Source of the DNA: Candidatus Latescibacterota bacterium | Lineage (GTDB): Bacteria; Latescibacterota; UBA2968; UBA8231 | Assembly (NCBI GenBank): GCA_964291625.2 | Contig: OZ220089.1 | Location: 1,408,001-1,472,000, forward strand | DNA: 64,000 nucleotides | Direction of reading: 5' to 3' | Shown: positions 1 through 19,504 of the stretch, in pieces | Numbering within the stretch: the stretch's first letter is position 1 | Layout of the letters: each line of letters opens with the position of its first letter | Position numbers and translations under genes: made by a program | Notes under the pieces: generated by a model | Database searches by the model: none | Told to the model about the DNA's origin: nothing | What the model saw: only the letters and a program-made list of their open reading frames with translations

Positions 1-1275
1 TTCACTTTGGAAGACCCCAACGCCAGGATCAAGGGTTCACGGGATCCCCTTGGCATGCAGCCCATCTGGACAGCATTCGGACGGCACGTCGTCACGAATC
101 TCACAACCCAGACAAACTCCACACGCGGCTTTACGATCCTGCTTCTGGGACGCTACCTCGCCGAGCGAGCGATCGAGGACGGCCGGATCGGTCGCGAACT
201 GGCGCTTGATGCCTTCCTGCGCTTCGAGCAGATCGGGGCGTACGTGCGTTACATAGCACACGACGCGGCAGGAGACATCCGCGGCATCGACCGAGTACGA
301 TCCAGGCTTGACGAGCACCGCGGATTGGTCCCGATTCGAGCGGACTCCGATGGATTCATTCTCGGCGATCAGCGAGTCAACGGACTGTGGGGGTTATTCT
401 CGGTTTCGGCCCGGGTGTCTCGCCTCATCCCGGATGGCCCCATCGGATTGACACCCGAGGCGACAGCCTTCATCGAACGCGCATATCTGCCGATCTTGGA
501 GCCCACCATGGAGCGACTGCTGCGGCTTGTCGCGCGGGATGGGCGGCTCGATACCCGTAAGCCCGATGCGATCTTCTCGGCCCTGAGCGAGGTGTTGTCG
601 GAGTCGTTCACGGTAGAAGAGCAACACTTCTACGGTGAGCATCTTCGCGACGGCCTCCACGTCAAGGGAGCGGAATCCGGCCGCCAGCGGACCTTCCGGG
701 AGTTGCTCGTCCAGCACACCGAACTAACCCCGCCGACCGACCGCAGCGAAATCGTGCAATTGCAGGGAGCCGCTCGCTCGGTGGATGACGACCTCGCAAG
801 TCGCCTTGATCAGATTGCCCGGATCGAAGCCGTGCTCGCCCCTGCCATGTCACTCTTCGACTTCATGCTTACATGCCACCACCGACAACTAAGCGACATG
901 GCGGAAGAGCTCAGAGATCGTTGGGGGGATGCGGTCCCGTTCATCGACGTGGAGAAGAATCAAGACTTGCTCGCCGGCGTCGGCTTGGTTTGGTCCGAGG
1001 CAGTTCTCGGATGCTTCGAACGCTGCCTGCGGGGGCTTTCCGCCGGAGACTACTTGGAAGTCTTGGGGGCGTTGCTCGAGTGGCACAAGAGCATCATGGA
1101 CAGCAGGGGCGGCGCATCATGGGTGCAGATCAGGGAGGACGGGTCGCTGGACGTGAGATACCGAGGAGCGGACGAGAGATTGCCGTCCAGGGATGAACTG
1201 CCTCAATTGTGGCGGAACGGATACTTCATCGATTCCCTGAAGGACATCACCCGGCAACTTGGCAACGCGGCATGA
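1..1275 (+). CDS. Hypothetical protein with N-terminal GSRDPLG motif; first gene of PLD-helicase operon (5' end probably outside window)
   Basis: Frame is open from base 1 (FTLEDPNARIKGSRDPLG); stop overlaps next ATG (ATGA 1272-1275). Confidence 0.8.
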   Translation, partial: FTLEDPNARIKGSRDPLGMQPIWTAFGRHVVTNLTTQTNSTRGFTILLLGRYLAERAIEDGRIGRELALDAFLRFEQIGAYVRYIAHDAAGDIRGIDRVRSRLDEHRGLVPIRADSDGFILGDQRVNGLWGLFSVSARVSRLIPDGPIGLTPEATAFIERAYLPILEPTMERLLRLVARDGRLDTRKPDAIFSALSEVLSESFTVEEQHFYGEHLRDGLHVKGAESGRQRTFRELLVQHTELTPPTDRSEIVQLQGAARSVDDDLASRLDQIARIEAVLAPAMSLFDFMLTCHHRQLSDMAEELRDRWGDAVPFIDVEKNQDLLAGVGLVWSEAVLGCFERCLRGLSAGDYLEVLGALLEWHKSIMDSRGGASWVQIREDGSLDVRYRGADERLPSRDELPQLWRNGYFIDSLKDITRQLGNAA

Positions 1276-3317
1276 CCACCTCAGCACGGTTTCCGAGAGC
1301 AGTGCTCTCCGGTCGGCTTGCCGAGGCGCTACAGGGCCGACGGGTGCGCAGCGCCGTTTTCACCACGTTCAACTTCGATCCCGGATTTTTCGAGTTGCAG
1401 GTGCTGCCATTCCTCTTCTCCCAGAGCTTCAGCCAAGTGGACAAGGTGCGGTTGCTTCAGCTTGAGGATGCTCTGCGCGGTGTTGACCACCTGGCGGTCT
1501 ATTACGATCGCGGCGCTCTCTCCCAAGACGCGGAGCCGGCCCGGCTCGACTACCGGCGTATCGATGTCCGCCAAAGGACCGGTGTCTTTCACCCCAAGCT
1601 CGCCTTCGTGCTGGTAGATGAGCCCGAGGACAACCCGAGCGAGACCTCTCAGTCACTGGTGGTGGCCTGCCTCTCAGCGAACCTGAGCCGCGCTGGGTGG
1701 TGGGAAAACCTCGAGTGCGCCCACATCGTGGAAGTCCAGGATCAGGATCGTGCACCCGAGCGGGTTCCGTACCGGCGGGACCTCCTCGCCATTCTGCGTC
1801 GCATCCGTGCCTGTGCAGTAGATGATGATCACCAAGCCCTCGATGCGGTGCATGCCTTCCTCCGCGAACGTGTCTCTTCCGAGCGATACGTAAATGCGAG
1901 CGCAGGAGGACGCTGGCACACACGCCTCTTCGGCGGCGAAGGCAGGTCCGACCTCGCCAACTGGCTGCAAGAGCGCGGTCTCGGTCGCGACGACTGGAAT
2001 CTGGAGGTAATCTCTCCCTACTTCGATGCTCGCGGGGCTGCTCCGCTCAAGCGATTGACGGAGGCACTCAAGGTGCGGGAGACGCGCGTCCATCTGCCGC
2101 GCGATGCGGACGGCTCGCCGCTGGTGACAGTAGACGCATACAGTGCCACGGCCGCCCTCGATGGCGTGCGATGGGCGGAACTGCCAGAGGAGATGACGCG
2201 CCGCTCCGGCAGGGGGTCCGGGGAGCGCCTCACCCCCCGCCGGGTGCACGCGAAAGTGTACCGGCTCTGGCGCGGAGGTGGCGGTGACGTCGTGCTCGTG
2301 GGTTCAGTCAACTGCACGAGTCCGGCGCACAGCCGAGGAGGGGCGGGCAACCTCGAGGCGGCATTCCTGGTCGACATCTCGGACCATCAGGTTCCCAAGC
2401 GCTGGTGGCTTCGGCCCCTCGAGTACGACGCCGAGTGCTTCCCCGAGACCCCGCCGGAAGAAGGCGATGGCCTTGACCAGCCACCGTTCGGCGTCTCCAT
2501 CCGTTACCATTGGGGCGAGCGCGCCCTTGCGGTGCGCGTCGAGAGAGACATAGCGCTGCCGATCGAGGTGATGGATATCTCGGGCCGGCCGCTGTTCACC
2601 ATCCAACACGGAGATGTAGAGCGATGGTTTCTCTGCGATGGAAACGCGGCAACCGCGGTAAGCAAGAGCCTCAAATCGAGCAGCTTCGTGCAAGTGCGTC
2701 ACGGTAACGCTCATTGGCGCGTGCTGGTGCGTGAGGAAGGCATGGCGCACCGCCCTTCCATTCTGAGCGAGCTGAGCCCCGAGGAGATCCTGGAGTACTG
2801 GTCCTTGCTCTCGGCCGAGGAGCGTGCTGCCTTTATCGAGCGTCATGCTGCATTCGACCAGGAGATTGAAGGGATCCCCGCTACCCAAAGGGAATCGCTC
2901 GGGACCGGCGACACCTTGTTCGATCGTTACGCGGGGGTGTACCACGCCTTCGGCTGCCTGCGTCGGACTGTCGAGAAGGCCCTTGAGGACGGCCACCTCG
3001 AGGTGGTGGAAATGAGGTTGCTGGGCGCGAAGTATGACTCTCTGCCCGAGTTGCTCCGGAAGACACTAGAACGCAAGGATGGCGATCCGGTGCTCCGGTA
3101 CGTCACCTTCCTCACCGCAAAGCAGCTTCGGCGCTCCCTCGACAAGCGTCACCGGCAATTCCTTCGCGACCGCAAACTGCTCGTGCGAGAACTCGACAGG
3201 CTGATTGCAGCCGGAGTCAACCGGCGGGACGAGCTGTTTACCCACGACGAGGACCAGACACGAGCCTTCCTCGAATGGTTCGAGCCCGTCTTTCTCAAGG
3301 ACCTGGGACGTCTCTGA
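1272..3317 (+). CDS. Phospholipase D-superfamily nuclease-like protein
   Basis: Two HxK motifs (FHPKLAF...SANLS; VHAKVY...GSVNCT); ATGA coupling sets start at 1272. Confidence 0.8.
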   Translation: MTTSARFPRAVLSGRLAEALQGRRVRSAVFTTFNFDPGFFELQVLPFLFSQSFSQVDKVRLLQLEDALRGVDHLAVYYDRGALSQDAEPARLDYRRIDVRQRTGVFHPKLAFVLVDEPEDNPSETSQSLVVACLSANLSRAGWWENLECAHIVEVQDQDRAPERVPYRRDLLAILRRIRACAVDDDHQALDAVHAFLRERVSSERYVNASAGGRWHTRLFGGEGRSDLANWLQERGLGRDDWNLEVISPYFDARGAAPLKRLTEALKVRETRVHLPRDADGSPLVTVDAYSATAALDGVRWAELPEEMTRRSGRGSGERLTPRRVHAKVYRLWRGGGGDVVLVGSVNCTSPAHSRGGAGNLEAAFLVDISDHQVPKRWWLRPLEYDAECFPETPPEEGDGLDQPPFGVSIRYHWGERALAVRVERDIALPIEVMDISGRPLFTIQHGDVERWFLCDGNAATAVSKSLKSSSFVQVRHGNAHWRVLVREEGMAHRPSILSELSPEEILEYWSLLSAEERAAFIERHAAFDQEIEGIPATQRESLGTGDTLFDRYAGVYHAFGCLRRTVEKALEDGHLEVVEMRLLGAKYDSLPELLRKTLERKDGDPVLRYVTFLTAKQLRRSLDKRHRQFLRDRKLLVRELDRLIAAGVNRRDELFTHDEDQTRAFLEWFEPVFLKDLGRL

Positions 3318-6300
3318 TGCGCCCGATCACCCCCAAGTTCCTCGACAAACTGATTGACTTCGCACCATCCGGCGAGGATCGCGACAAGGCCTTCGGCTCC
3401 CAGCAACGCGAAGGAACGGTGGCGGCATTCAACATGCTGGCACAGAACGGTTGCGCGTATCTGGCTGACGAGGTGGGCATGGGCAAGACATACGTCGCCC
3501 TCGGGGTGATGAGCCTCCTGCGTTACTTCGATCCCCATGCACGCATTGTCGTGATCGCGCCAAGAGAGAACATCCAGCGCAAATGGGTGAAGGAGCTACA
3601 CAATTTCGTGGGCCGGAACTGGCGCGTCGTCGGCAACCGAGTGAGATCGCTTCAGGGCAGACCGGTGTGGGAGCCCGTGGTCTGCAACTCGCTCGTCGAG
3701 TTTGCCCGCGAAGCACTGGTCAACCAGGACCGGGATTTCTTCCTGCGCATGACGAGTTTCAGCATCAGGCTGGCGGATTCCGAAGACCGGAGCAAGACCC
3801 GCGACGCCTTGCTCCAGAGCGTCCCCTGGCTCAAACGCCGTGACGTGCCGAATTACAGTCCCGAGGAATTTCGTGACGCCTTCGCCCTTGCCCTGAACCG
3901 CGCGGTGCCGGAGGCCGACTTGGTCATTCTCGACGAAGCCCACAACCTGAAGCATGGGTTCGGCGCCGAGGGCAGCACACGGAACAGGGTCATGGGACTC
4001 GCCTTCGGCCACCCGGAGGGGGAGTCCCTTGGACGACCGTGGTACGTCAAGAGAGCCAAGCGGGTGCTGCTACTCTCGGCCACACCCTTTGAGGACGACT
4101 ACGCCGCCATCCAGCGCCAGCTCGAGGTCTTCGGCTTCGGTAACGCGAAACTCAGAGGGGCAAGTGGTGAAGCCGACGCCAAGGTGACAGACCTCGCCGA
4201 CCCCGATGTCGCGGAGGATCAGAAGCGCCGGATCGCCCAACGCCTTCTCATTCGCCGTGTCTCGGGCCTCAAGATCGCGGGCAGGCTGCATACGAAGAAC
4301 ATGTACCGGCGCGAGTGGCGACGGGGCGGGCTCGAACACCACGACGAGCCAATTGAGATCGATGATCCGAAGCAGCGCCTGATCGTGGCCCTGATGCAGA
4401 AGAAGGTGGCCGAGGTCTTGCAGACTGAGCGGTTCAACAACCATTTCCAGATCGGTATGCTGTCCTCGTTCGAGAGCTTCCTGCAATCTGTGGAGACCGC
4501 GCGCCGTCGGCGGCGGGAGGAGGAGCCAGCCTTCGATGGCGAAGAGCAGCGGCGCGGCTTGAGCGACAGGGAACGCGACGGCATCGACACCGAGGCAATC
4601 GCCGAGGTCGTGCGCTCCTATCGGGAGTCCTTTGAAAGCACCCTGCCTCATCCGAAACTCGATGTGACTGCCAAGGCTCTGTCCAGTGCGTTCGAGACCG
4701 GAGAGAAGACACTCGTATTCGTGCGTCGAGTGGCAACCGTAGAGGAGTTGGCGGCCAAGCTGGACGAGAGATTCGATCGCTGGATCCAGGCACGGATGGA
4801 GGGGCATCTCCCGGAGCTTCACGATGAGATCGGTGAGTTGTTCAATCGCTACGCGAAGGAACGGCTAAGCCGGCCCGACGAAGTCGAAGCCACCGAGGAC
4901 GACGCCGATCTCTCAAGCGAAACAGAGCGCATGGACCGCAGGGACGACCTCGAGGAAGACGACGAGGGAGGGGCGGAGAGCTTCTTCGCCTGGTTCTTCC
5001 GCGGAGACGGTCCGTCCGGCGTGCTCTCTGGGGCCGCGTTTCAGAAGAACCGCCTGTCATCAACCAGTTCCGCGTACGCCACCTTGTTCGAGGACGACTA
5101 CGTGGCAAGCCTCCTCGGGGTCGAAGGAGGTGAGGTGCTCAACTCCCTCGCCCGGGTGACGGGCGAATCTCTGGAGCGTTGCGAAGGACGGTTGCGGACT
5201 CTCGCATTCGGAGTCTTCCACGGACGCAGCCGGCAGCGCGAGGGCTATCCGCGGCTGTACGTGTTCGAGGGTTACCAAGCAGCTGGCCTCGCGCTTCTTC
5301 GGCAGTGTGACGGGAAGATCGCCAAGCAAGCCGGGGTGATGTTGGAAGAGCGGTTCCCGGATTTCCGTCCCACTTCCCTCGAGCCGCCCCCCGGGTTTCC
5401 CGGACCTGGTGTAGGGCTCGGCATCACTACCGTTTTCACCGAACTCCGCAAACGCCCTGCGCTACGGAAGCATCTCTGGCCGGAAGAACACCCCGACGTC
5501 CGCAGAGACCAGAGCAAGTTCCGGACCAAGTTTCGCGACCAAGAGCAGCGCCGCGAGCTCCTGAGCGGCATGAGCCGCCTCGGTGCCCCCTATGTCGATC
5601 TCTATCTGCTGGCGATTCGGCGCATCGGCTCGTTCGCCCTCGGCCAGCGCCGGGAAGCCGAGTCCGCCACTGAACTGGCTTTGGATTTCGTCAACCTCCT
5701 CGATCGCCAGGAGGGTGAACCGGGATTCCACGCCTTCCACGAGCTCTCGCAGGCCGCGGAAGCCTTTGACCAAATCTTGTCCGTCAATTTCCCCGCAGTG
5801 CCGACTTGCCCCCTGCCGGATCTCCGCCGGCTCTACGGCCTCACCCTGCAGAAGCAGGTGCCGGTGGGTCGGATGTCGGGAGGTGTCAATCAGCGCCTAG
5901 TGCGGCAGTTCCGCATGCCCGGCTTCCCCTTGCTGCTGGTTACCACCGACGTGCTGCAGGAAGGCGAGGACCTCCACACCTTCTGCCGGCGGATCGTCCA
6001 CTACGGAATCGCCTGGACACCATCGGCGATGGAGCAGCGCACGGGCCGGGTGGACCGCATCGGGGGTCTGGTGCAGCGCCGCCTCGACGGTTCCCCCGTG
6101 CCTGCTGCGGCCGACGACTTCATCCAGGTCTACTATCCGCACTTGCGCGACACGGTTGAACTCTTGCAGGTGCGCCGCGTGCTCCGCCGCCTCAACAGGT
6201 TCCTGCGCCTGATCCACCGCGGCGACACTGCGGCGGGGGCGGACGGACATGCCATCGACGCGGCCCGTGCACTGCTCGAAGAGGTCGAAGACACGCCGCC

Positions 6301-6850
6301 GATCAAGGGAGAGCTCCAGTCCGCGTTCCCGATTGAGGCCGGTTGGCTCGATGGCGATCTGGGCGCCGACGATGTCACCGTGCCCGACTGGGAGAGCCAG
6401 TACTCTCATCTCGAAACACTCTGGCTAGGGCTTTGCGAGCATCACCGGATCGCCAATCCGACATCCGTCTTCAAGCACCTGCGCCGTGGAGAGTTCCCGG
6501 CTGCCCAAGGCCGGATGCAGCCCTTCACCTTCGGTCTGCGCTCCCAAGTAGCGGGGGACGAGATCCTGATCGAGTGTCAGAGCACGATCGGGTTTGTCGA
6601 CCTGCAGGAAGACGACGTCGTCAATGCACTGATGGACGCCCTCGATGGCACCAGTGGGGTGAAGCTCTGCGTCGATCCGCGCGTCGGCAAGCATCAGGAC
6701 CAGATATACGTCCGGCGTGAGCTGCTGTTCCACCCTGAAGCCACCCGCCTCACGGATGTTCTCGCCATGTTCGAGAACACTCTTCCCCCCGCAGTCCACC
6801 TGCGCGCCTTCCTAGAAGGCACCGGCCTGCTCGGCACGAGCGTTGACTGA
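3317..6850 (+). CDS. SF2 (SNF2-like) helicase with C-terminal extension
   Basis: LADEVGMGKT, ILDEAHN, LLSATP, TDVLQEGEDLH, EQRTGRVDR motifs; TGATG coupling at 3315-3319. Confidence 0.9.
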   Translation: MRPITPKFLDKLIDFAPSGEDRDKAFGSQQREGTVAAFNMLAQNGCAYLADEVGMGKTYVALGVMSLLRYFDPHARIVVIAPRENIQRKWVKELHNFVGRNWRVVGNRVRSLQGRPVWEPVVCNSLVEFAREALVNQDRDFFLRMTSFSIRLADSEDRSKTRDALLQSVPWLKRRDVPNYSPEEFRDAFALALNRAVPEADLVILDEAHNLKHGFGAEGSTRNRVMGLAFGHPEGESLGRPWYVKRAKRVLLLSATPFEDDYAAIQRQLEVFGFGNAKLRGASGEADAKVTDLADPDVAEDQKRRIAQRLLIRRVSGLKIAGRLHTKNMYRREWRRGGLEHHDEPIEIDDPKQRLIVALMQKKVAEVLQTERFNNHFQIGMLSSFESFLQSVETARRRRREEEPAFDGEEQRRGLSDRERDGIDTEAIAEVVRSYRESFESTLPHPKLDVTAKALSSAFETGEKTLVFVRRVATVEELAAKLDERFDRWIQARMEGHLPELHDEIGELFNRYAKERLSRPDEVEATEDDADLSSETERMDRRDDLEEDDEGGAESFFAWFFRGDGPSGVLSGAAFQKNRLSSTSSAYATLFEDDYVASLLGVEGGEVLNSLARVTGESLERCEGRLRTLAFGVFHGRSRQREGYPRLYVFEGYQAAGLALLRQCDGKIAKQAGVMLEERFPDFRPTSLEPPPGFPGPGVGLGITTVFTELRKRPALRKHLWPEEHPDVRRDQSKFRTKFRDQEQRRELLSGMSRLGAPYVDLYLLAIRRIGSFALGQRREAESATELALDFVNLLDRQEGEPGFHAFHELSQAAEAFDQILSVNFPAVPTCPLPDLRRLYGLTLQKQVPVGRMSGGVNQRLVRQFRMPGFPLLLVTTDVLQEGEDLHTFCRRIVHYGIAWTPSAMEQRTGRVDRIGGLVQRRLDGSPVPAAADDFIQVYYPHLRDTVELLQVRRVLRRLNRFLRLIHRGDTAAGADGHAIDAARALLEEVEDTPPIKGELQSAFPIEAGWLDGDLGADDVTVPDWESQYSHLETLWLGLCEHHRIANPTSVFKHLRRGEFPAAQGRMQPFTFGLRSQVAGDEILIECQSTIGFVDLQEDDVVNALMDALDGTSGVKLCVDPRVGKHQDQIYVRRELLFHPEATRLTDVLAMFENTLPPAVHLRAFLEGTGLLGTSVD

Positions 6851-7245
6851 TGGAAGGTCTGCTTCACGGGATTGACGAGCTGATCAAAGAGGAGCGTCTT
6901 CCCTGGACCCGCATCGGCAACCAGGTACGGATCTCGCGCTCGCGAACCGGGCGCTCGCAGGTCGTACGGGTCGCTCGGCGGAGTGACCGCTACGTATTCT
7001 CTTCAGTCATCGCCCGCGTAGCCGCGCTGAATGAAGACCGAAGGGCGCTCGCCTTCCGGCTCTGGCGGCGAAATGCCCTGAAGGCAGTGGTAATGTTCAC
7101 CATTGATCGCCGGGACCGGGTGATCGGTCTGATCGATCAGCCAATCGAGAGCGTGAACCCCAAGGAGATCAAGTTCTACCTCGAGACGCTGGCTCATGAG
7201 TGCGACCGGCTGGAGTACATACTGACCGGAGCGGACATGCGGTGA
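6850..7245 (+). CDS. YbjN / type III secretion chaperone-like small protein
   Basis: 131 aa; helix-strands-helix(LWRRN)-strands-helix pattern ending ECDRLEYILTGAD; TGATG coupling. Confidence 0.6.
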   Translation: MEGLLHGIDELIKEERLPWTRIGNQVRISRSRTGRSQVVRVARRSDRYVFSSVIARVAALNEDRRALAFRLWRRNALKAVVMFTIDRRDRVIGLIDQPIESVNPKEIKFYLETLAHECDRLEYILTGADMR

Positions 7246-9395
7246 CGCGCACCGAAACCACTCGTGGCGCGACGCGAAGTCTCGACGCCGGAAACCCACC
7301 CCTTCACGACCCACACCTCCAGGCCGCCCTCGAAGCCGTCCAGGCCGGCGACCCCGAGGCCCTCCGCCCCCTGCTGGAGACCCACCCCTCCATCGTAAAC
7401 ACTCCCCTGCCGCACGACGGCCGCACCCGGCGACCCATGCCGACGCTGCTGCACCGGGCCATCCTCGCCTGGATCGAAGGGGAGCCGCAGGTGCCCCAGC
7501 TGCTGATCGATCACGGCGCCGACGTGAACAGCACGTCGGGCGGGACCCTGGCGCCGCTGGAGATGGCGGCGGCGTCCCTGCACCCGGGGATCGCCGAGCT
7601 GCTGATCGCCAACGGCGCCGACGTGGAGCTGCACGTCGAGCTGCCGCCGGTGGAGGTGGCCGTCCGCTACCAGAGGAGGCAGATCTTCAAGTTCCTGATC
7701 GCGGCGGGCGCGCGGTACGACATCTCCCATACCCTGCGCCTGGGCATGATGGCGGAGACCCGGGCCCTGCTCGCGGCCGATCCGTCTCTGGCCAACATCG
7801 AGACCGACCACGGGCTGCCGCTGAACCTGGCCGTGGGCCGACCCGGCATCTTCAAGCTGCTGCTGCGCCACGGGGCGGACATCCACGCCGAGGACTCCCT
7901 CGGCCTGACGCCGTTGAAGGCGGCGCGAACCCCGGACAGCGGCAAGGAGGTGCGGGCCCTGCTGGAGATGGGCGTCGAGGACGACATCTACGGCGCCATC
8001 TCGGCCGGCGACGAGGACCGGGTCGAGGCGATCCTGAAGGCCGACCCGGCACAGGCCCACCCGGTGGGCTGCTGGCCGCAACGGGGGCCGGTCCCGCCCG
8101 TCATCTGGGCGGTCTGGTCGGGGTCGACGCGCATCCTCGAGCTGATCCTGGAGCAGGACGTGGCCCTCGACATCCGGCCGAACCCGCTCAGCACCGCCAT
8201 CGGCTACGACTACGACGAGATGGTGCGCATGCTGCTGGACAAGGGGGCCTCGCCCGAGTGCGCGGACCCCTCCGACTGGCCGGGGGCCTCCAGGCTGCGG
8301 CCGTACCGTTTCGTCTTTCCGGCGGATCCTCCCCGGCCCCACGTGCCCCTATACACGGCCCTGCGCGGGGGAACCATCGCCGCCGTGGAAATGCTGCTCG
8401 ACGCCGGGGCGGACCCGAACTGCACCCTGACGGACTGGGCCGGCCTTCAGTGGCCGGCGCTGGCGGGCAATCTGCGGCAGGTGAAGCTCCTGCTCGACCG
8501 GGGCGGCGATCCGTCCAGCCCCTGCGCCGAGAGCGCCCTCCGTTGGGCCGTGCAGCTGTGCCGGCGGCCGATGATCGAGCTGCTCGTCACCCGCGGCGTC
8601 GACATCGACACGGTAGACGCGGACGGCCGGGGTCTGCTGGACATGGTGGGCAAGTCCGACTGGAGGCCGCGCCGCCCGGAGCGGGTCCTGACGACCGCCT
8701 TGCTGGAGGAGCTGATGGGGCTCTTCCACGGGTCCCGGCAGGAGGCGCGACTCCTGCGTCTGCGCGGCGACATCATGGACGCGGTCATCGAGGGCCGGAC
8801 CGGCGACCTGCGCGCCGTGCAGGCGGAGGCGCCCGAGCTCCTGGAGCGGGAGCTGGTGCGGGACGAGCTGTTCCACTGGGCCGCCAGCCGGGGTCACGGC
8901 CACGTGGTCGATCTGCTGGCGGAGCTGGGCGCGCCCATGACGATCAGCGTCGCCGCGGCCCTCGGGCGGGCGGAGCTGGTCGACTCCATGTTGGCGGCGG
9001 ACCCGTCCCTGGTGGAGGGAGACCTGACGCCCGAGGAGATCGACTGGAACAAGCACCTGCCCTGGCCCCAGCACCCGCCCCTCGTCGTCGCCGCCATGAA
9101 CGACCGCACAGAGGTGGCGGCGCTGCTGCTGGACCGCGGCGCCCAGATCGACCGCCAGGTCGGCTGGTACCAGACCACGGCCCTCCACCACGCCGTGAGC
9201 AGCGAGTCCACCAAGACCGTCAAGCTCCTGCTGGACCGGGGCGCCGACGTCAGCATCCGCAGCCGGAACCACCACCTGCCGACGGCCCTGGTGAAGAACT
9301 GGCCGCCCACGGTTTCGCGCCGCGAGATCCGCGACCTGCTCGTCGCCCACGGGGCCAACCCCGAGGAACAGCTCCCTCACAGCGCAGGTGAATGA
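7242..9395 (+). CDS. Ankyrin repeat protein (paralog A)
   Basis: Repeated TPL/ALH...LL..GADVN motifs; GTG at 7242 overlaps previous stop (start uncertain). Confidence 0.85.
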   Translation: MTRTETTRGATRSLDAGNPPLHDPHLQAALEAVQAGDPEALRPLLETHPSIVNTPLPHDGRTRRPMPTLLHRAILAWIEGEPQVPQLLIDHGADVNSTSGGTLAPLEMAAASLHPGIAELLIANGADVELHVELPPVEVAVRYQRRQIFKFLIAAGARYDISHTLRLGMMAETRALLAADPSLANIETDHGLPLNLAVGRPGIFKLLLRHGADIHAEDSLGLTPLKAARTPDSGKEVRALLEMGVEDDIYGAISAGDEDRVEAILKADPAQAHPVGCWPQRGPVPPVIWAVWSGSTRILELILEQDVALDIRPNPLSTAIGYDYDEMVRMLLDKGASPECADPSDWPGASRLRPYRFVFPADPPRPHVPLYTALRGGTIAAVEMLLDAGADPNCTLTDWAGLQWPALAGNLRQVKLLLDRGGDPSSPCAESALRWAVQLCRRPMIELLVTRGVDIDTVDADGRGLLDMVGKSDWRPRRPERVLTTALLEELMGLFHGSRQEARLLRLRGDIMDAVIEGRTGDLRAVQAEAPELLERELVRDELFHWAASRGHGHVVDLLAELGAPMTISVAAALGRAELVDSMLAADPSLVEGDLTPEEIDWNKHLPWPQHPPLVVAAMNDRTEVAALLLDRGAQIDRQVGWYQTTALHHAVSSESTKTVKLLLDRGADVSIRSRNHHLPTALVKNWPPTVSRREIRDLLVAHGANPEEQLPHSAGE

Positions 9396-9414
9396 CACCC
9401 AGGGAGAGGATCGC

Positions 9415-10503
9415 ATGGATCGCAGGGAGACCGCCGCCTTCTGGAGACAGGCCTGGATGTCGGAACACGAACGCCCGCTGACGCCGGCTGAGGAGGAGTT
9501 CGTGGACGCATCCGTTCGCCTCACCTCCGACCGCTGGAGCGGCGAGTGCGACGTGGAGCGCATGACGGCCCTCGTCGAGCGCCTTCCCTCGCTGCTCGAG
9601 ACGATCGGACCCGCGGTGCTCAACATCGCCGCGTACCGGGGCGGCTGCGCCCCGGCCCTGGAGCTCCTGCTCGACCGGGGGCTGGTGTTCTCGGTGGCCG
9701 AGCACCGCGCGAAAGGCGGCAAGGCGTCCGAGTACGACATCGTCCACGAGGCCGCCTGGGCGGTCTCCACCGACAACTTGCGCATCCTCCTCGAGCGCGG
9801 CATGGCCGACCCCAGGAGCACCTCGAACCCGCACACCGGCTGGCCCGACAACGTCTCCCTCCTCTACTGGGCGGCCGTCCAGGGGGGAGACGATGGGGAC
9901 GGCGAGGCCCTCACCCGACTGCTGCTGGAGCACGGCGCCGACCCCGAGGTCAAGTTCAAGGGCAACGGCGAGCGCGGGTGCACCGCCCTGCAGGAGGCCT
10001 GCGTCCACGGACTGGGCAGCCGCGACGGGATCGTCCAGGCCCTGATCGACCACGGCGCCCACTACGACGCCTTCTCCGCCAGCGCCCGGGACGACCTCGA
10101 CCGCCTGCGCCAGTGCGCGCGGGAAGAGCCCGAAGTGGCGCGCTCCCTGGGAGAGGCGGAGATGACCCCCCTCCACTGGGCATCCCGCGCCGGCGCGCTG
10201 CGCTGCGCCAGGTGGCTGCTGAACCACGGAGCGGATGTGGACGCTCAGACCGCGGCGGGGCGGACCCCCCTGCACATGGCCGACGGCCCCGAGATGCTGT
10301 GGCTGCTGGCCGGGAAGGTCGCGAACCTGAACCCCCAGGACCGCAAGGGCCGCACGCCGCTGCACCAGGCGATGTATGGGGGTGACCTTGAGAAGGCGGA
10401 GATCCTGATCGTGCTCGGCGCCGACGTGCGCATCCCCAACCGGCAGGGGAAGACACCGCTGGAGGTGGCGCGCAAGGAGTGCCTGTTCTTCAAGCGGGGG
10501 TGA
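9415..10503 (+). CDS. Ankyrin repeat protein
   Basis: TPLHWA, GRTPLH and LL.HGAD motifs; GGAGAGG RBS before ATG 9415. Confidence 0.85.
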   Translation: MDRRETAAFWRQAWMSEHERPLTPAEEEFVDASVRLTSDRWSGECDVERMTALVERLPSLLETIGPAVLNIAAYRGGCAPALELLLDRGLVFSVAEHRAKGGKASEYDIVHEAAWAVSTDNLRILLERGMADPRSTSNPHTGWPDNVSLLYWAAVQGGDDGDGEALTRLLLEHGADPEVKFKGNGERGCTALQEACVHGLGSRDGIVQALIDHGAHYDAFSASARDDLDRLRQCAREEPEVARSLGEAEMTPLHWASRAGALRCARWLLNHGADVDAQTAAGRTPLHMADGPEMLWLLAGKVANLNPQDRKGRTPLHQAMYGGDLEKAEILIVLGADVRIPNRQGKTPLEVARKECLFFKRG

Positions 10504-10525
10504 CCCGCGGCGTCCATCAGTTCTC

Positions 10526-12262
10526 GTGGACTACAAGGAAACCTTGACCAGACCTGCACTTGTCGCAGCTGTCTTTCTGGCTCTCCACGTACTTCCCCTC
10601 CTCTGGAGGCCCAACCCTCTGTGGGGCGCGGATCTCCTCTTCTACCATGCCCCATTGTACCGGGGCATCTTCATTCTGCTCGCTGTCCTGCTGTTCATCC
10701 CCGCCATCCGGAGCCGAGTCCAGGGTATTGCTCGAACCCTTCCGCTCTCCCCCTGGGAGTCGGGACGTAGTGCCTGGCTCATCAAGGCCCTGGTCCTGCT
10801 CATCGCGCTCGCCGTCTTCGTCGCCCTGCGTTCGGCCTGCCATCTTCTGGGCGATGGTTACCTCCTTCTGCGGGACTTGGACGCAGGCATCCTGCAGCCC
10901 ACCCACCGAGCGCCATTTACCTTCGTCCTTGTTCGCTTCCTGCACAGCACCGGGGGCCCACTCTGGGAGACTGCTGAGAACACCTACCGAACTTACAGCT
11001 ACGTCTCCGGCGCCATCTACGTTCTGATCGCCTTCCCCGTTGCCGGTACCCTCGGCAAGACCCCTCTGAAGAAGTCCATCGTCCTGGCCTTCCTGTTGAC
11101 CGGCGGGTTCCTGCAACTCTTCTCCGGCTATGTGGAGAACTACGCCCTCTACATGCCGGGCATCCTCCTCTACCTTCTTCTGGGCATGCGAGTCCTCGAG
11201 AACCGCATGTCCATCTACGTTCCCGCGCTCTTGCTGAGCTTGCTTGTCAACCTTCATCTCGCTCTTGCCCTCTTTAGCCCGTCCCTGCTCATGCTCGTCT
11301 ATCGCAACTACTGCAACAAGCGGGGTCTCGGTCCACGCTGGAGAAACTGGCTCTCTACTGCGACGGCAGTATGTGTGGTCCCGCTGGGGGCGGCACTCTT
11401 TCTCTGGCTCTCCGGCGTTGAGTTCCTGGCCTACTTGGGACGCGCTGGTGACAGCCATCTCCTGCCCGTTCTTGCACAACCTGACTTTCGCGATCCTTAC
11501 CGCCTCTTCTCCCTGTCTCACCTCCTCGACTTTCTCAACCTGCAACTACTAGCCGCCCCTGCCGCGTGCATGGCCCTCTTCCTGCTCGGCAAGAGATCCT
11601 TCGGCCATCACCCCTTCCTTCTCTCCGCCGCGGCTTTCCCCCTGCTCTTCACCTTTCTCGCCAACCCCGAAATTGGTGCCTTCCGAGACTGGGACATTCT
11701 CGCCCTCCCGGCCCTGCCGCTCACGCTCTGGGCAGCCTCCGCGCTCCTTTCACGAATGCGTGATCCGAACAGCGCTTTCCAGGCGGCCTTCCTCATCTGC
11801 GGTGCTGCCGCCCTGCACAGTCTCATGTGGATCGGTCTGAATGCCAGTCCCACGGCCGCCGAGACCCGATACGCCCACCTCATGGACAGACTCACTGGCC
11901 ATGCGGCCTCCTATGGATGGGAAACGCTGGGAAGCTACTACCACCTGCAGGACAACCCAGGATCCGCCCTCAACGCCTACCAGCGCGCCCTCGACGCCAA
12001 CCCGGACAACCCTCGGCACTGGTTGGCTGTCGGATACAGCCGTTACATCATGGGGCAGTACGAAGAGTCAATTCGGTTCTTCCGGAGAGCCGTGGAGATC
12101 AACCCCAACCTACCAAAGGCCCACCTCAATTTGGGCATGGCCTATCGGGCGCTGAAGCGCATGGAAGAAGCCAGATCAAGCCTTGCAAGAGTCCTGGAGC
12201 TCGATCCCGACAATCCTCAGGCAGAAAGGATCCGACGATTCCTCGCGAAGCACAGGAAATAG
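10526..12262 (+). CDS. Multi-pass membrane protein with C-terminal TPR repeats
   Basis: Many hydrophobic segments followed by TPR motifs (AYQRALDANPDN, AHLNLGMAY). Confidence 0.85.
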   Translation: MDYKETLTRPALVAAVFLALHVLPLLWRPNPLWGADLLFYHAPLYRGIFILLAVLLFIPAIRSRVQGIARTLPLSPWESGRSAWLIKALVLLIALAVFVALRSACHLLGDGYLLLRDLDAGILQPTHRAPFTFVLVRFLHSTGGPLWETAENTYRTYSYVSGAIYVLIAFPVAGTLGKTPLKKSIVLAFLLTGGFLQLFSGYVENYALYMPGILLYLLLGMRVLENRMSIYVPALLLSLLVNLHLALALFSPSLLMLVYRNYCNKRGLGPRWRNWLSTATAVCVVPLGAALFLWLSGVEFLAYLGRAGDSHLLPVLAQPDFRDPYRLFSLSHLLDFLNLQLLAAPAACMALFLLGKRSFGHHPFLLSAAAFPLLFTFLANPEIGAFRDWDILALPALPLTLWAASALLSRMRDPNSAFQAAFLICGAAALHSLMWIGLNASPTAAETRYAHLMDRLTGHAASYGWETLGSYYHLQDNPGSALNAYQRALDANPDNPRHWLAVGYSRYIMGQYEESIRFFRRAVEINPNLPKAHLNLGMAYRALKRMEEARSSLARVLELDPDNPQAERIRRFLAKHRK

Positions 12263-12290
12263 TGTGCCCAGAGGGACTTGGGATTCCCCA

Positions 12291-14387
12291 ATGAACCCCC
12301 CACCCCTCCAGTCCGCCCTCGAAGCCGTCGAAGCCGGCGATCCCGAGGCCCTCCGCCCCCTGCTGGAGGCCGACCCCTCCCTCGTGAACACCCCTCTTCA
12401 GCACGACGGCCGCACCCGGAGACCCCTGCCGACGCTGCTGCACCGGGCCGCCCTCGGCTGGCGCGAAGCCGAGCTGCGGGTGGCGCAGCTGCTGATCGAT
12501 CACGGCGCCGACGTGAACAGCACGGAGGGCGGGTCCCTGGCGCCGCTGGAGATGGCCGCCTGGTCGCGGCATCCGGGAATGGCGGAGCTTCTGATCGCCA
12601 ACGGCGCCGACGTGGAACTGCACGTCGAGGTGCCGCCGGTGGAGGTGGCCGTCCTCTACCAGAGGAGGGAGATCTTCAAGCTCCTCATCGCGGCGGGCGC
12701 CAGGTACGACATCTCCCACACCCTGCGCCTGGGCATGATGGCGGAGACGCGGGCCCTGCTCGCGGCCGACCCGGCCATCGCCAACATCGAGACCGACCAC
12801 GGGCTGCCGCTGAACCTGGCCGTGGGCCGACCCGGCATCTTCAAGCTGCTGCTGCGGCACGGGGCGGACATCCACGCCGAGGACTCCCTCGGCCTGACGC
12901 CGTTGAAGGCGGCGCGGACCCCGAAGAGCGACAAGGAGGTCCAGGCCCTGCTGGAGATGGGGGTCGAGGACGACATCTACGGGGCCCTGGCGGCCGGCGA
13001 AGAGGCCCGGGTCGAGGCGATCCTGAAGGCCGACCCGTCGCAGGCGCGGCCGGTGGGCTGCTGGCCGCGACGGGGGCCGATCCCGCCCGTGATCTGGGCG
13101 GTCTGGTCCGGCTCGACGCGCATCCTGGAGTTGATCCTGGAGCAGGACGTGCCTCTCGACATCCGGCCGAACCCGCTCAACACGGCGATCTCCTACGGAT
13201 ACGACGAGATGGCGCGCATGCTGCTGGAAGAGGGGGCCTCGCCCGAGTGCGCGGACCCCTCCGACTGGCCGGGGGCCTCCACCTACCCGGCGGACCCCCC
13301 TCTCGGCCTGGTGCCGGCGCCGCCCCGGCCCCACGTGCCGCTCTACAAGGCCCTGCGCGGGGGCACCATCGCCGCCGTGGAGATGCTCCTGGAGGGCGGC
13401 GCGGACCCGAACTGCACCCTTACCAACTGGTCCGGCCTTCAGTGGCCGGCGCGAGCCGGCAATCTGCAGCGGGTGAAGCTCCTGCTCGACCGGGGCGGCG
13501 ATCCGTCGAGCCCCTGCGCCGAGAGTGCCCTTCGCCTGGCGGTGCAGCTGTGCCGGCGGCCGATGATCGAGCTGCTCGTCACCCACGGCGTCGACATCGA
13601 CACGATCGACGCGGACGGCCGGGGCCTGCCCGACATGGTGGGCAAGTCCGACGGGCGACCGCGCCGCCCGGAGCGTGTCCTGAGGACCGCCTTGCTGGAG
13701 GAGCTGATGGGCCTCGTCCACGGGTCCGGGCGGGAGGCCCGTCTCCTGCGGTTGCGGGGCGACCTGGTGGACGCGGTCATCGAGGGCCGGACCGGCGACC
13801 TGCGCGCCGTGCAGGCCGAGGCGCCCGAGTTGTTCGAGCGGGAGCTGGTCCGCGACGAGCTGTTTCACTGGGCCGCCAGCCGGGGTCACGGCCACGTGGT
13901 CGACCTGCTGGTGGAGCTGGGCGCGCCCATGACGATCAGCGTCGCCGCGGCCCTCGGGCGGGTGGAGCTGGTCGACTCCACGTTGAAGGCGGACCCGTCC
14001 CTGGTGGAGGGGCGGCTGACGCCCGGGGAGACCGACTGGAACAAGCACCTGCCCTGGCACCAGCACTCGCCCCTCATCGTCGCCGCCATGAACGACCGCG
14101 CGGAGGTGGCGGCGCTGCTGCTGCACCGCGGCGCCGGGATCGACCGCCAGGTCGGCTGGTACCAGAACACGGCCCTGCACCACGCCGTGGACAGCGAGTC
14201 CACCCAGACCGTCAGGCTCTTGCTGGAAAAGGGCGCGGACGTCAATATCCGCAGCCGCGATCACCACCTGCCCACGGCCCTGGTCAAGAACTGGCCGCCC
14301 TCCGTCTCGCGCCGCGAGATCAGCGACCTGCTCGTCGCCCACGGGGCCAACCCCCAGGAACTACCCACCCACGGAGCAAGTGAATGA
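12291..14387 (+). CDS. Ankyrin repeat protein (paralog B)
   Basis: Collinear and highly similar to 7242-9395. Confidence 0.85.
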   Translation: MNPPPLQSALEAVEAGDPEALRPLLEADPSLVNTPLQHDGRTRRPLPTLLHRAALGWREAELRVAQLLIDHGADVNSTEGGSLAPLEMAAWSRHPGMAELLIANGADVELHVEVPPVEVAVLYQRREIFKLLIAAGARYDISHTLRLGMMAETRALLAADPAIANIETDHGLPLNLAVGRPGIFKLLLRHGADIHAEDSLGLTPLKAARTPKSDKEVQALLEMGVEDDIYGALAAGEEARVEAILKADPSQARPVGCWPRRGPIPPVIWAVWSGSTRILELILEQDVPLDIRPNPLNTAISYGYDEMARMLLEEGASPECADPSDWPGASTYPADPPLGLVPAPPRPHVPLYKALRGGTIAAVEMLLEGGADPNCTLTNWSGLQWPARAGNLQRVKLLLDRGGDPSSPCAESALRLAVQLCRRPMIELLVTHGVDIDTIDADGRGLPDMVGKSDGRPRRPERVLRTALLEELMGLVHGSGREARLLRLRGDLVDAVIEGRTGDLRAVQAEAPELFERELVRDELFHWAASRGHGHVVDLLVELGAPMTISVAAALGRVELVDSTLKADPSLVEGRLTPGETDWNKHLPWHQHSPLIVAAMNDRAEVAALLLHRGAGIDRQVGWYQNTALHHAVDSESTQTVRLLLEKGADVNIRSRDHHLPTALVKNWPPSVSRREISDLLVAHGANPQELPTHGASE

Positions 14388-16351
14388 CACGCAAGATCTA
14401 CGCTTTCGGCATGGACGGCTTCATCGTCCCCATGATGAAGCGCTTCGCCGCCGAGGGGGCCGTGCCCCACTTCGAGCGCATGCTGCGGGAGGGGGCGGTC
14501 AACCAGACCCTGCCCTCCTTCCCGGTGTGGACCCCCACTAACTGGGCGACCCTGTCCACCGGCGCCCACACCGGCACCCACGGGGTGACCCGCTGGCGCG
14601 TGGAGGTCGAGCCGGGGCGGCGCATCGACAGCTTCGACGGGCGGGCCAACAACGCCGAGCGCATCTGGAACGCCCTCGAACGGGCCGGGATGACGAGCGT
14701 GGCCGTCCACTACCCGGGGGCCCATCCCTCCGGCGTGGAGAAGGGCTTCGTGGTCGACGGCTTCGGCCACCCCAGCCACCGGCGCACCGACTTCGAGGTG
14801 GCTACGTGCCAGGCCTACACGACCGAGGCGGAGCTGGCCGCCGAGATCGAGATGGACCACGACGGCACGGCCGTGCGCGCGGCCCAGAGCGGGGTCGAGC
14901 CGATCCCGCCCCTGAAGCCGGCGCAAGGGTGGAGCAACCTGCCCGACAGCCACGCGCCGCCCCTGGAGAGCCGCATCGAGGTGGAGGCCCGCCTCGGCGG
15001 CGACGTGACCGCCTTCGAGCTGCTGGCCGTGGACGGCGGCGGACGCGGGTACGACCGGGTGCTCGTCTGCCGGGGTCGGGACGGCGGCCGCCGCGTCGCG
15101 CAGGCGCGGGTCGGCGAGTGGAGCGAGTGGGCGCTGGAGGAGTTCGCCATCGACGGCGGCCGGCAGCGGGCCTCGGTCCGCTTCAAGCTGATGGAGCTGG
15201 CCCCGGACGGCAGCCGGCTCAAGCTCTACCGCACCCAGGCGACCTTCGCCGACGGCTTCACCGTGCCCGACGACCTGGCCGGGGAGCTGATCGAGCGCTT
15301 CGGCCCCTACCAGGAGCACGCCTCCATGCTGCCCTACACGGCGGGCATGGCCGACTTCGACACGGCCCTGGAGGAGTGCGAGTACCAGGGCCTGTGGTTC
15401 GCCGAGGTCGCCCGCTACATGCTGCGCGAGCGGGGCTGCTCCTTCTTCATCTGCCACTGGCACCTCTACGACTACCTCAACCACATCCACCTCGGCGACG
15501 TCGACCCCGTCTGCCCCGGGTACGACGCGGACAAGGCGGACGAGTACCTCGACTGTTTCCGGCGCGCCTACCAGGTGGGCGACCGCATCCTCGGCCGCCT
15601 CTGGGAGGATGCCGACGACCGGACCTTCGTGGGCGTCCTCTCCGACCACGGCTGCTCCCCCGACGTGCGCGTGGCCAACATCCGCCAGTTCCTCCACGAG
15701 CGCGGCTTCCTGGCCCTCGCGGGCGGCCAGGAGAACCTGGTGCGCGACCAGGTCCGCGAGGAGGACATCGACTGGGAGCGCACCCGGGCCTACCTGAAGG
15801 ACGACAAGGGCTTCGACATCTTCATCAACGCCGAGCCCGGGCCCGAGTTCGACCGCATCGAGGCGGAGCTGCTGCTGGCCCTGCGCACCTGGGTCGACGA
15901 GGAGGTGGGGCGCAACCCCGTGGCCATCGCACTGCCCCGGCGCGACGCCTGGATCCTCGGCCAGTGGGGGGACCAGTGCGGCGACGTGGTCTTCGCCTGG
16001 GACCACGGCTACGTGAGCGGTTACTACGGCCAGTGGCGGGGCATCGCCGGCGACGCCAGCGTCGGTGCGCCCAACGTGTACGGCGCCCACCACGGCGGCT
16101 TCCTGCCGACCCAGAGCCGGGACTCCTCCAGCTTCGGCTCGTGGCTGCTGGCGGGACCCGGCGTCAAGGCGGGCTACGAGCGCCCGGCGGAGAAGCTCGG
16201 CTACATCCACGCCGCCGACGTGGTCCCCACCTTCTGCCACCTGCTGGGTGCCGAGGCCCCGCGCCAGTCCCAGGGCACGGTGGCGCGGGACCTGCTTCAG
16301 GGGTTCGAGATGGAGCGGGAGCGGGAGTCCCGCGGGCCTGGCGAGCCTTGA
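14384..16351 (+). CDS. Alkaline phosphatase superfamily (nucleotide pyrophosphatase/phosphodiesterase) protein
   Basis: GMDG, PVWTPTNWATLSTG, SDHG, DVVPT motifs. Confidence 0.85.
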   Translation: MTRKIYAFGMDGFIVPMMKRFAAEGAVPHFERMLREGAVNQTLPSFPVWTPTNWATLSTGAHTGTHGVTRWRVEVEPGRRIDSFDGRANNAERIWNALERAGMTSVAVHYPGAHPSGVEKGFVVDGFGHPSHRRTDFEVATCQAYTTEAELAAEIEMDHDGTAVRAAQSGVEPIPPLKPAQGWSNLPDSHAPPLESRIEVEARLGGDVTAFELLAVDGGGRGYDRVLVCRGRDGGRRVAQARVGEWSEWALEEFAIDGGRQRASVRFKLMELAPDGSRLKLYRTQATFADGFTVPDDLAGELIERFGPYQEHASMLPYTAGMADFDTALEECEYQGLWFAEVARYMLRERGCSFFICHWHLYDYLNHIHLGDVDPVCPGYDADKADEYLDCFRRAYQVGDRILGRLWEDADDRTFVGVLSDHGCSPDVRVANIRQFLHERGFLALAGGQENLVRDQVREEDIDWERTRAYLKDDKGFDIFINAEPGPEFDRIEAELLLALRTWVDEEVGRNPVAIALPRRDAWILGQWGDQCGDVVFAWDHGYVSGYYGQWRGIAGDASVGAPNVYGAHHGGFLPTQSRDSSSFGSWLLAGPGVKAGYERPAEKLGYIHAADVVPTFCHLLGAEAPRQSQGTVARDLLQGFEMERERESRGPGEP

Positions 16352-16394
16352 ATCCCGCAGCCCCCAAGCTGAACCCTACTATGCGGCGGGACCC

Positions 16395-16434
16395 TTGACA
16401 TGACTTCACCGCACGGTTACGCTGTAGCTACAGC
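16395..16434 (+). promoter_or_regulatory. Sigma70 promoter and palindromic operator of dinJ
   Basis: TTGACA-17 bp-TACGCT; perfect palindrome GCTGTAGCTACAGC at 16421-16434 overlaps the -10. Confidence 0.75.
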
Positions 16435-16461
16435 AAAGCTACAAGAGGAGGCGAGTGCGGG

Positions 16462-19473: not shown

Positions 19474-19504
19474 CCCCGCGGCTCGGGTCTCTCTCTGACT
19501 TGAA

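Follow-up and report, generated by a model that had tools for sequence, protein, structure and literature searches.

A four-gene nuclease-helicase cassette related to Azaca and PDC-M27, with a predicted chaperone-fold protein as the probable adaptor of its helicase

The first 7.2 kb of a 64,000-nucleotide (nt) stretch of a Candidatus Latescibacterota bacterium (contig OZ220089.1, positions 1408001-1472000, hereafter the window) is filled by a cassette of four genes, all on the plus strand. We read this cassette as a self-contained, horizontally acquired and widespread nuclease-helicase system which belongs to a distinct clade next to Azaca and PDC-M27, and which would work as an Azaca-type DNA-degrading defence complex with the product of gene 4 as a helicase-bound adaptor or regulator; we put the probability of this reading at roughly 0.6. 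Nuclease-helicase systems are among the commonest architectures of bacterial immunity. PDC-M27 is a "phage defence candidate" of PADLOC-DB v2, and PADLOC-DB was used here in its 2023 release. The four genes, with their lengths in amino acids (aa), are as follows.

1..1275, plus strand, with the ATG 6 nt upstream of the window start: gene 1 (component A), 426 aa, PDC-M27A-like protein
1272..3317, plus strand: gene 2 (component B), phospholipase D (PLD)-family nuclease, 681 aa, with ZacB/PDC-M27B profile matches
3317..6850, plus strand: gene 3 (component C), superfamily 2 (SF2; SNF2-related) helicase/translocase, 1177 aa, with PDC-M27C/ZacC profile matches and Pfam helicase domains
6850..7245, plus strand: gene 4 (component D), basic protein with a predicted TY-chaperone (YbjN/CesT) fold, 131 aa

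The ATG of gene 1 lies at contig position 1407995, where an ankyrin-repeat gene has just ended with its TAA (the upstream 15 kb was examined), and this start is supported by the homologue alignments, which begin at exactly that Met. Each gene runs into the next, gene 1 into gene 2 by an ATGA overlap (gcATGAcc, 1272-1275), gene 2 into gene 3 and gene 3 into gene 4 by TGATG start-stop overlaps (3315-3319 and 6848-6852, respectively), and the four genes are translationally coupled. A promoter and terminator scan found no promoter-like site, and terminator-like sites were fewer than in shuffled sequence. The initial annotation, which had been made from the letters alone, described four genes joined by ATGA/TGATG overlaps and encoding an RDPLG-motif protein, a two-HxK PLD nuclease, a helicase of ~1177 aa and a 131-aa protein; all junctions read as claimed there, and all four open reading frames (ORFs) and their motifs were confirmed.

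Two samples of related loci established that gene 4 is a core part of this clade and that its co-occurrence with the helicase is obligate. When 185,579 species genomes were searched with gene 4 as the seed, which biases the sample, 17 loci were obtained. All four genes, ordered and with tight junctions, are present in 12 of the 17, with hosts among the Gammaproteobacteria, Acidobacteriota, Planctomycetota, Myxococcota and others, while two are partial operons and three are truncated remnants; such a four-gene order across phyla far exceeds the chance expectation. The second sample was seeded on the helicase N-terminus in metagenomes and comprised the best 80 of 385 relatives, with helicase identities of 38-76%. 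Here 27 of the 80 loci were unassessable, as the contig ends inside the helicase gene or <150 nt past it, and gene 4 was found in 53/53 of the assessable ones, in 47 as a separate next ORF (one of them split over two frames) and in 6 fused to the helicase. All four genes are present also on two viral contigs of IMG/VR. On the other hand, the hidden Markov model of gene 4 found no match in the two canonical PDC-M27 loci with their 869- and 874-aa helicases, and matched none of five Azaca loci (0/5) at E<=0.01. In the plasmid collection gene 4 had no match, and gene 3 finds only canonical PDC-M27 there. Since canonical PDC-M27 (two loci) and Azaca (5/5) are without gene 4 and also without the helicase extension described below, the extension and gene 4 evidently occur together. 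The initial annotation had taken gene 4 for an extra component and had made this idea depend on its co-conservation with the helicase and on the four-gene order. It was right in the first respect, as no library model matches gene 4 convincingly and the Azaca and PDC-M27 loci examined do not contain it; co-conservation was found in every assessable locus, and the order is kept across phyla in the 12 complete loci.

Some of the loci seeded on gene 4 are in decay. In a Bryobacterales locus (L007:3950-9933), a decaying copy, the helicase gene bears a ~2.4-kb insertion and gene 1 was not detected, while at locus L008 only the helicase C-terminus and gene 4 remain. Loci L006, L010 and L019 keep truncated remnants of gene 4, and at L010:4993-5361 the N-terminus of gene 1 (TLEDPNAKVRGSRD) stands in frame with the C-terminal half of gene 4, a deletion scar from which the intervening genes were lost.

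The natural fusions indicate what gene 4 works on. Fused helicase-gene 4 proteins are 1310-1446 aa long and the gene 4 domain always forms their C-terminal end, after a linker of ~30 residues. A helicase tree was made from 57 distinct rows with only their first 1000 residues, which kept the fused trait itself out of it; at least three independent changes of the fused state are required on this tree, and the starred branches force that minimum. Such recurrent fusion is Rosetta-stone evidence for an action of gene 4 on the helicase, at the helicase C-terminus. A fused helicase-gene 4 protein of 1253 aa also occurs in a distant relative (31% helicase identity) on MT835507.1, an unverified "Bacteriophage sp." record; in this record (reverse complement 4349-20979; system at 3812-10753) a gene 1-like gene of 404 aa and a gene 2-like gene of 690 aa are followed by the fused helicase and then by a gene for an AAA+-type ATPase. 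The place at which the fusions attach is a region of the helicase in its own right.

6300..6847, plus strand: acidic C-terminal extension of the helicase, roughly its last 180 residues, delimited in a 33-sequence alignment; attachment point of the fusions

Compared with canonical PDC-M27C and ZacC this tail amounts to roughly 160-240 extra residues, the canonical PDC-M27C helicases (869 and 874 aa) stopping ~70 aa past motif VI and ZacC having a tail of ~115 aa. Its isoelectric point (pI) is mostly 4.3-5.8, a charge complementary to that of the basic gene 4 protein.

The window protein of gene 4 gave no convincing match among the PADLOC, Pfam, NCBIfam and PHROGs models and nothing meaningful against PDB sequences; an NCBIfam "excisionase" match (E 0.0038, 23 residues) was rejected as chance. 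Its homologues formed 79 clusters at 58-91% identity in a word-indexed search and 498 clusters at 50% identity in a profile search, 332 of the latter with E<=1e-10. An AlphaFold2 model made from a 31-sequence alignment reached a predicted local distance difference test score (pLDDT) of 91.1 and a predicted template modelling score (pTM) of 0.84, with the elements in the order helix, four strands, helix, two strands, helix. Foldseek of this model against the PDB returned ExsC, SpcU, YbjN, SycN/YscB, SycH, SycE, CesT and AmyR with probability 1.00, template modelling scores of 0.57-0.71 and identities of 9-16%. Weak Pfam matches (E<=10) pointed the same way among 31 family members, with YbjN (PF10722) in 18/31 (best 1.7e-5), TY-Chap1 (PF22551) in 8/31 and CesT (PF05932) in 7/31, the window protein itself having none. 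The model thereby assigns gene 4 the alpha-beta-alpha TY-chaperone (YbjN/CesT) fold, and both this confident model and the fold searches confirm the YbjN/CesT-like pattern that had initially been noticed in its sequence. Two distant relatives have this domain in other settings: in P0227 (386 aa) the chaperone-like domain is N-terminal and is followed by a weak NERD nuclease-related match (E 0.0086), and in P0234 (294 aa) it is again N-terminal and is followed by a zinc-ribbon-like region.

Conservation is uneven along gene 4. Across phyla the C-terminal half scores 0.70 against 0.54 for the N-terminal half, and by element helix 1 and strands 1-2 score 0.47-0.53 against 0.73-0.79 for the C-terminal elements. 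The conserved half comprises helix 2, which contains WRRN, the last strand, and helix 3, which contains ARECDRxEY, and the invariant residues are W72, N75, E117, D119, R120 and E122. A conserved C-terminal half with a freer N-terminal face fits one conserved docking surface. In 12 loci the identity of gene 4 was 32-65% and that of the helicase 39-73%, so that gene 4 diverges at a rate about equal to that of genes 1-3. The protein is mostly basic (median pI 9.7, range 5.4-11.2), whereas secretion chaperones are usually acidic.

The fold itself suggests other roles, for which there is some precedent. TY-chaperones are described in PMC9503650 as peptide-binding chaperones and are predicted there in anti-viral conflict systems, and BacA is presented in PMC10948618 as an operon-embedded putative regulator with a TY-chaperone-type fold, a precedent outside secretion. 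It could be supposed that gene 4 is a mere folding or assembly chaperone for the helicase or the nuclease, needed for yield but neither a stoichiometric subunit nor a regulator; the term "possible protein stabilizer", which the reference list of PMC9503650 applies to YbjN, and the peptide binding of TY-chaperones given in that source would suit such a role, and the start-stop overlap between gene 4 and the helicase gene would make capture during translation possible. However, at least three independent and permanent fusions to the helicase C-terminus fit better with a stable subunit, and the six invariant residues listed above suggest one specific conserved interface, and we hold the folding role to be unlikely. 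We also considered an antitoxin-like role, in which gene 4 would inhibit the PLD nuclease, and dropped this candidate, as only the fold speaks for it and the fusions are to the helicase and not to the nuclease.

The initial annotation had proposed that gene 4 could be a sensor or regulator which binds a phage protein. In its full form this explanation holds that gene 4 senses infection, taking an extended stretch of a phage protein into its chaperone-type groove and thereby switching on the helicase-nuclease. The fold is indeed a peptide-binding one, and the crystal structures of class I chaperones of the type III secretion system (T3SS) include effector segments, going by the structure titles; furthermore, the variable N-terminal half (0.47-0.53 as against 0.73-0.79) could reflect changing ligands. 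But gene 4 diverges like genes 1-3 and bears no sign of hypervariability, and its recurrent covalent fusion to the helicase shows that the first partner is internal. Because of the conserved C-terminal half, the repeated fusion and the slow evolution, we favour an internal primary partner over a viral one, and regard the sensor as a possible but doubtful alternative.

In our preferred reading gene 4 would be an adaptor or regulator bound to the helicase; the anti-phage function of the cassette, complex formation, the docking site and the gating role are inferred. By analogy with Azaca, the four proteins would assemble into one complex, in which the SF2 ATPase of gene 3 would load onto or translocate along foreign DNA, driven by ATP, and the two-HxK PLD enzyme of gene 2 would cut this DNA, with gene 1 as a required accessory or scaffold subunit. 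Gene 4 would be a constitutive subunit which docks on the acidic helicase C-terminus via helix 2, the last strand and helix 3. The most likely mechanism would be that gene 4, as adaptor or regulator, holds an extended peptide segment which gates the nuclease or the helicase. The gate is probably a held peptide because the TY-chaperone fold family binds extended peptides; this peptide may be internal, acting by autoinhibition, or viral, acting in sensing.

A more specific and quite tentative proposition, which we consider less probable than not by a wide measure, is that the helicase tail is itself a degenerate YbjN/chaperone-like domain, and that it pairs with gene 4 as a SycN-YscB-like pseudo-heterodimeric clamp; the extended peptide gripped by this clamp would belong to a phage protein or else be a segment by which the PLD nuclease inhibits itself. 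By eye, the tail alignment follows a TY-chaperone-like pattern of helix, three strands, helix, two strands, helix. Computation gives this pattern no support: the comparisons of the tail with gene 4 and with YbjN-like Pfam families, given below, were negative, and in Atlas the scores for the tail of the fused protein P0084 were 0.81-0.82, no better than chance, with a cluster of 36% YbjN at rank 3. A mirror-tree or co-variation comparison of gene 4 with the helicase tail was considered and dropped, as the independent loci are too few and as gene 4 has diverged in loci L011-L013 without a parallel in the tail.

Genes 1-3 supply what would be the catalytic core of the system, and the motifs on which this assignment depends are these.

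34..54, plus strand: GSRDPLG motif of gene 1; G14, S15, D17, P18 and L19 invariant in 18/18 aligned homologues
1590..1598, plus strand: first HxK of gene 2 (H107-P-K109), invariant in 10/10, with S135/A136/N137 downstream
2247..2255, plus strand: second HxK of gene 2 (H326-A-K328), invariant in 10/10, with G344/S345/N347, N360 and E362
3476..3490, plus strand: Walker A of gene 3 (GMGKT, residues 54-58), invariant in 10/10
3932..3943, plus strand: Walker B/DEAH box of gene 3 (residues 206-209); D206, E207 and H209 invariant in 10/10
6035..6064, plus strand: motif VI of gene 3 (QRTGRVDRIG, consensus QRTGRxDRIG, residues 907-916), core invariant in 10/10 and 33/33

As far as sequence can tell, the PLD active site and the ATPase motifs are intact. 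Gene 1 has PDC-M27A as its best PADLOC match (5.8e-20 and 4.1e-20 in two scans, 69.9 bits), and 18/18 of its homologues match this profile too. No Pfam family was found for the gene 1 family (the window protein and 18 members), its comparison with PDB sequences gave nothing useful (best E 0.07), and its homologues fall into at least 488 clusters at 90% identity, none of which has a name. The opening of gene 1 is the same as the DPLG..IW block at the start of the canonical PDC-M27A proteins, and the RDELG of five ZacA proteins occupies the same place as its RDPLG. Gene 2 matched ZacB (1.3e-19, over residues 42-384) and PDC-M27B (4.8e-13, 46.6 bits) in PADLOC; the stretch aligned by Pfam PLDc_2 (E 0.0033, below the family cut-off) is the region of the second HxK, and PDB sequences gave no match. 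Gene 3 matched PDC-M27C (1.5e-76, 256.5 bits) and ZacC in three short stretches (5.9e-25), with weaker PADLOC matches to DpdE (~1e-18), DrmD (3.8e-18) and BrxH; among PDB sequences it found only RapA, over the helicase-C motif. Helicase_C, ResIII and DEAD of Pfam were above their cut-offs, while SNF2-rel_dom reached 22.6 bits against a cut-off of 24.9. The earlier description of this protein as an SNF2-like helicase stands as regards the helicase, which is of SF2, and falls just short as regards SNF2, and "SF2, SNF2-related" is the safer wording.

We place the cassette in a third, separate (sister) clade of one Azaca/PDC-M27 superfamily and in neither of the two known groups, as gene 1 fails the test for DUF6361 and as its helicase has an additional region at the C-terminus. 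According to the report on Azaca (bioRxiv 10.1101/2025.07.10.664194), DUF6361 is the domain of ZacA, and in BmAzaca ZacA, ZacB, ZacC and an intact Walker A are all required, T4 DNA is cleaved and T-even phages are protected against; the same report describes the conserved ZacA residues as dispensable in vitro, and the role of ZacA and the target choice of Azaca as still open. For comparison, five canonical Azaca loci were collected by a DUF6361 (PF19888) search of 401 Pseudomonadota genomes, each with three genes, A of 388-439 aa, B of 616-711 aa and C of 1023-1129 aa. In the gene 1 family, 0/18 members matched DUF6361 in Pfam (E<=10) and 0/18 matched the PADLOC ZacA profile (E<=1), and a PF19888 search of five genomes, four of them with the operon, found nothing. 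When the gene 1 family was aligned with the five ZacA proteins by hhalign the E value was 0.081 and only the RDxLG region was aligned; in Atlas a lead to a DUF6361 cluster scored 0.85, below the trust level. The idea that the first three genes are Azaca-like was sound, with ZacB and ZacC matched by genes 2 and 3 and PDC-M27 A, B and C all matched; that gene 4 had been "added" to an ordinary Azaca was not, in view of a gene 1 without DUF6361 and a helicase with its own tail. As to whether all four genes already match a described system, genes 1-3 do so weakly with PDC-M27 and Azaca and gene 4 not at all.

Similar observations were made with PDC-M27. The canonical locus on the Rhodoferax antarcticus plasmid NZ_CP019242.1 scores 605/805/1287 bits on the A/B/C profiles, against 70/47/256 bits for window genes 1/2/3, which are 23-34% identical to the Rhodoferax proteins. 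The second canonical three-gene locus is carried by two Vibrio nigripulchritudo plasmids that are nearly identical. The plasmid neighbourhoods of these canonical PDC-M27 loci are of a defence type. Upstream of PDC-M27 on the Rhodoferax plasmid (NZ_CP019242.1 142-2612) there are a gene with a WYL domain and one with DUF2779, the latter with a weak match of Cas4-like type, and downstream of it on the conjugative Vibrio plasmid (NZ_AP027054.1 9180-12622) there are nucleotidyltransferase, SLATT and reverse-transcriptase genes.

The GC content at third codon positions (GC3) is 0.73-0.75 in the cassette genes, 0.91-0.92 in the flanking ankyrin genes and 0.95-0.98 in most other neighbours, and overall GC is 0.61-0.66 in the cassette against 0.70-0.73 in the flanks. 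The genome G160, of the same genus, is collinear with the window at 93% identity up to window position -20 and again from 7306, with a 1.74-kb TPR-like segment in between, and no trace of the four genes was found in three same-genus genomes. By the PDC-M27C profile (E<=1e-30) the system is present in 1/168 genomes of the phylum and in 0/9 other genomes of the genus. Its nearest neighbours on the helicase tree, which mixes phyla, come from a metagenome contig, at 80% identity, and from a metagenome-assembled genome of the Gammaproteobacteria. The low GC3, the break in collinearity, the patchy presence and the tree neighbours together mark the cassette as a recent and discrete horizontal acquisition; neither direct repeats at the cassette borders nor an adjacent integrase were found.

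The flanks of related loci often hold defence genes. Among 14 related loci, from which 114 flanking ORFs were scanned, 12 had at least one PADLOC match at E<=1e-8, which we take as supportive rather than quantitative. A complete BREX set (BrxC, PglZ, BrxD, BrxHI) stands directly beside the cassette in L018, and with BrxD and BrxHI in the flanks of L041 and L072 the BREX association recurs in three unrelated loci. Other flanks hold a type IIG restriction-modification enzyme and DruE (Druantia-like; L085), PDC-S37/Hhe (L092), prokaryotic Argonaute (pAgo; L004), GajB-like and DrmD-like helicases (L081), and E2 and TIR genes (L065). The defence-island context that had been looked for is thus met with around the relatives and is absent in the window genome, where the neighbours are ankyrin and TPR genes.

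These contexts bear on whether the cassette might be non-immune, serving DNA repair or recombination, or the maintenance or competition of mobile elements. The local ankyrin-gene context would agree with this, as would DR1245, a YbjN-like protein which the reference list of PMC9503650 gives as partner of the DNA-repair protein DdrB, and the presence of the cassette on two viral contigs and one phage-labelled record. Its horizontal distribution is, however, patchy (1/168 phylum genomes, and a helicase tree that mixes phyla), its decay forms (helicase insertion, truncations, deletion scar) are typical of defence-gene turnover, bona fide defence systems are frequent neighbours, and it has kinship to the experimentally validated Azaca, and a non-immune role appears very unlikely to us.

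Several points weigh against the defence complex with a helicase-bound gene 4 that we prefer. Both locus samples are biased, one by its gene 4 seed and the other by its restriction to helicases of >=38% identity, and ~9 of the 53 assessable helicase-seeded loci are near-duplicates. We infer the docking of gene 4 on the helicase tail from the fusions and the charge only, which is a weakness; hhalign of the tail with gene 4 gave a probability of 0.9% and no relation, and the tails matched YbjN-like Pfam families in 0/33 cases. The view of canonical PDC-M27 comes from no more than three inspected loci, of which two are nearly identical, transposon genes lie directly downstream of the helicase in the Rhodoferax locus, and the PDC-M27C profile has 1217 positions, which implies that some members have a longer C-terminus. 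The window neighbours, being ankyrin and TPR genes, do not form a defence island, and the flank counts were made without a background control, helicase profiles cross-matching easily. In the literature searched, no paper mentions PDC-M27.

The cassette sits inside a paralogous array of ankyrin genes (~355-371 aa and 731-743 aa) and TPR genes, in which a unit of long ankyrin, short ankyrin and TPR gene repeats (window 7200-16351, and L002:11574-14984 upstream); the array occurs also in same-genus genomes, with varying copy number. Near it are a Cache-domain gene and a gene for a type I phosphodiesterase/nucleotide pyrophosphatase (14384-16351). Farther along the window, a gap of ~2.4 kb separates an antitoxin gene of RelB/DinJ type (16462-16719) from a toxin gene of YafQ type (19156-19473). 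In this gap, on the minus strand, lies a transposase of the Mutator/IS256 family (17288-18790), whose imperfect inverted arms of 27 nt are at 17242-17268 and 18636-18662. The two genes may be one pair split by the transposase insertion, or halves of two separate pairs.

The clade is large and spread over many phyla, going by the 498 clusters of gene 4 at 50% identity and the at least 488 clusters of gene 1 at 90% identity, and current defence-finder models would call such a cassette a weak PDC-M27 or Azaca, or nothing, and would miss gene 4. It offers a natural experiment, in which the same catalytic core comes with a peptide-binding subunit of chaperone fold, obligate and at times fused, and with a helicase extension to match it. 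Work on regulation would gain a concrete handle from this small protein, the defined region where it would dock, its invariant residues and the natural fusions. Uses of the YbjN/T3SS-chaperone fold would extend to DNA-targeting immunity; in the literature searched (supplements excluded) no paper ties this fold to a PLD-helicase system. If the clamp described above were true, an immune nuclease-helicase would be turned on and off by means of a type III chaperone fold, and the clamp would define a fourth, peptide-gated class of component in the Azaca superfamily.

Among known systems, DISARM has an SNF2-type helicase and a PLD nuclease (DrmD and DrmC) in common with the cassette, and gene 3 matches DrmD over the helicase-C motifs. 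However, no methyltransferase, DrmA or DrmB (DUF1998) was found in the four genes or the adjacent ORFs, and only generic helicase motifs match. With Azaca the cassette shares the order of accessory protein, two-HxK PLD nuclease and large SF2 helicase, the ZacB and ZacC profile matches of genes 2 and 3, and an RDxLG-type motif near the N-terminus of the first protein, but Azaca has three genes and the cassette has a fourth gene and an extra helicase tail. With PDC-M27 it shares the top profile for genes 1 and 3, the B profile for gene 2, the order of the first three genes and the DPLG..IW opening; the canonical loci differ in having three genes, an 869- or 874-aa helicase and no gene 4, whereas the window has a 1177-aa helicase and gene 4. 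The predicted fold of gene 4 is common to the TY-chaperone superfamily (YbjN, AmyR, DR1245, BacA PA14_16140, CesT, SycE, ExsC, SycN/YscB, TY-Chap1), from which gene 4 differs in sequence, with identities of 9-18%. The class I chaperones of T3SS have effector or secretion genes as neighbours, whereas gene 4 adjoins or is fused to a helicase (12/17 and 53/53 loci); no secretion-gene neighbours of gene 4 were met at the loci, the genome itself not having been searched for secretion genes. By these comparisons the catalytic core of the cassette is of a known kind, and what is new, going by the literature searched, is its obligate fourth subunit together with the helicase extension.

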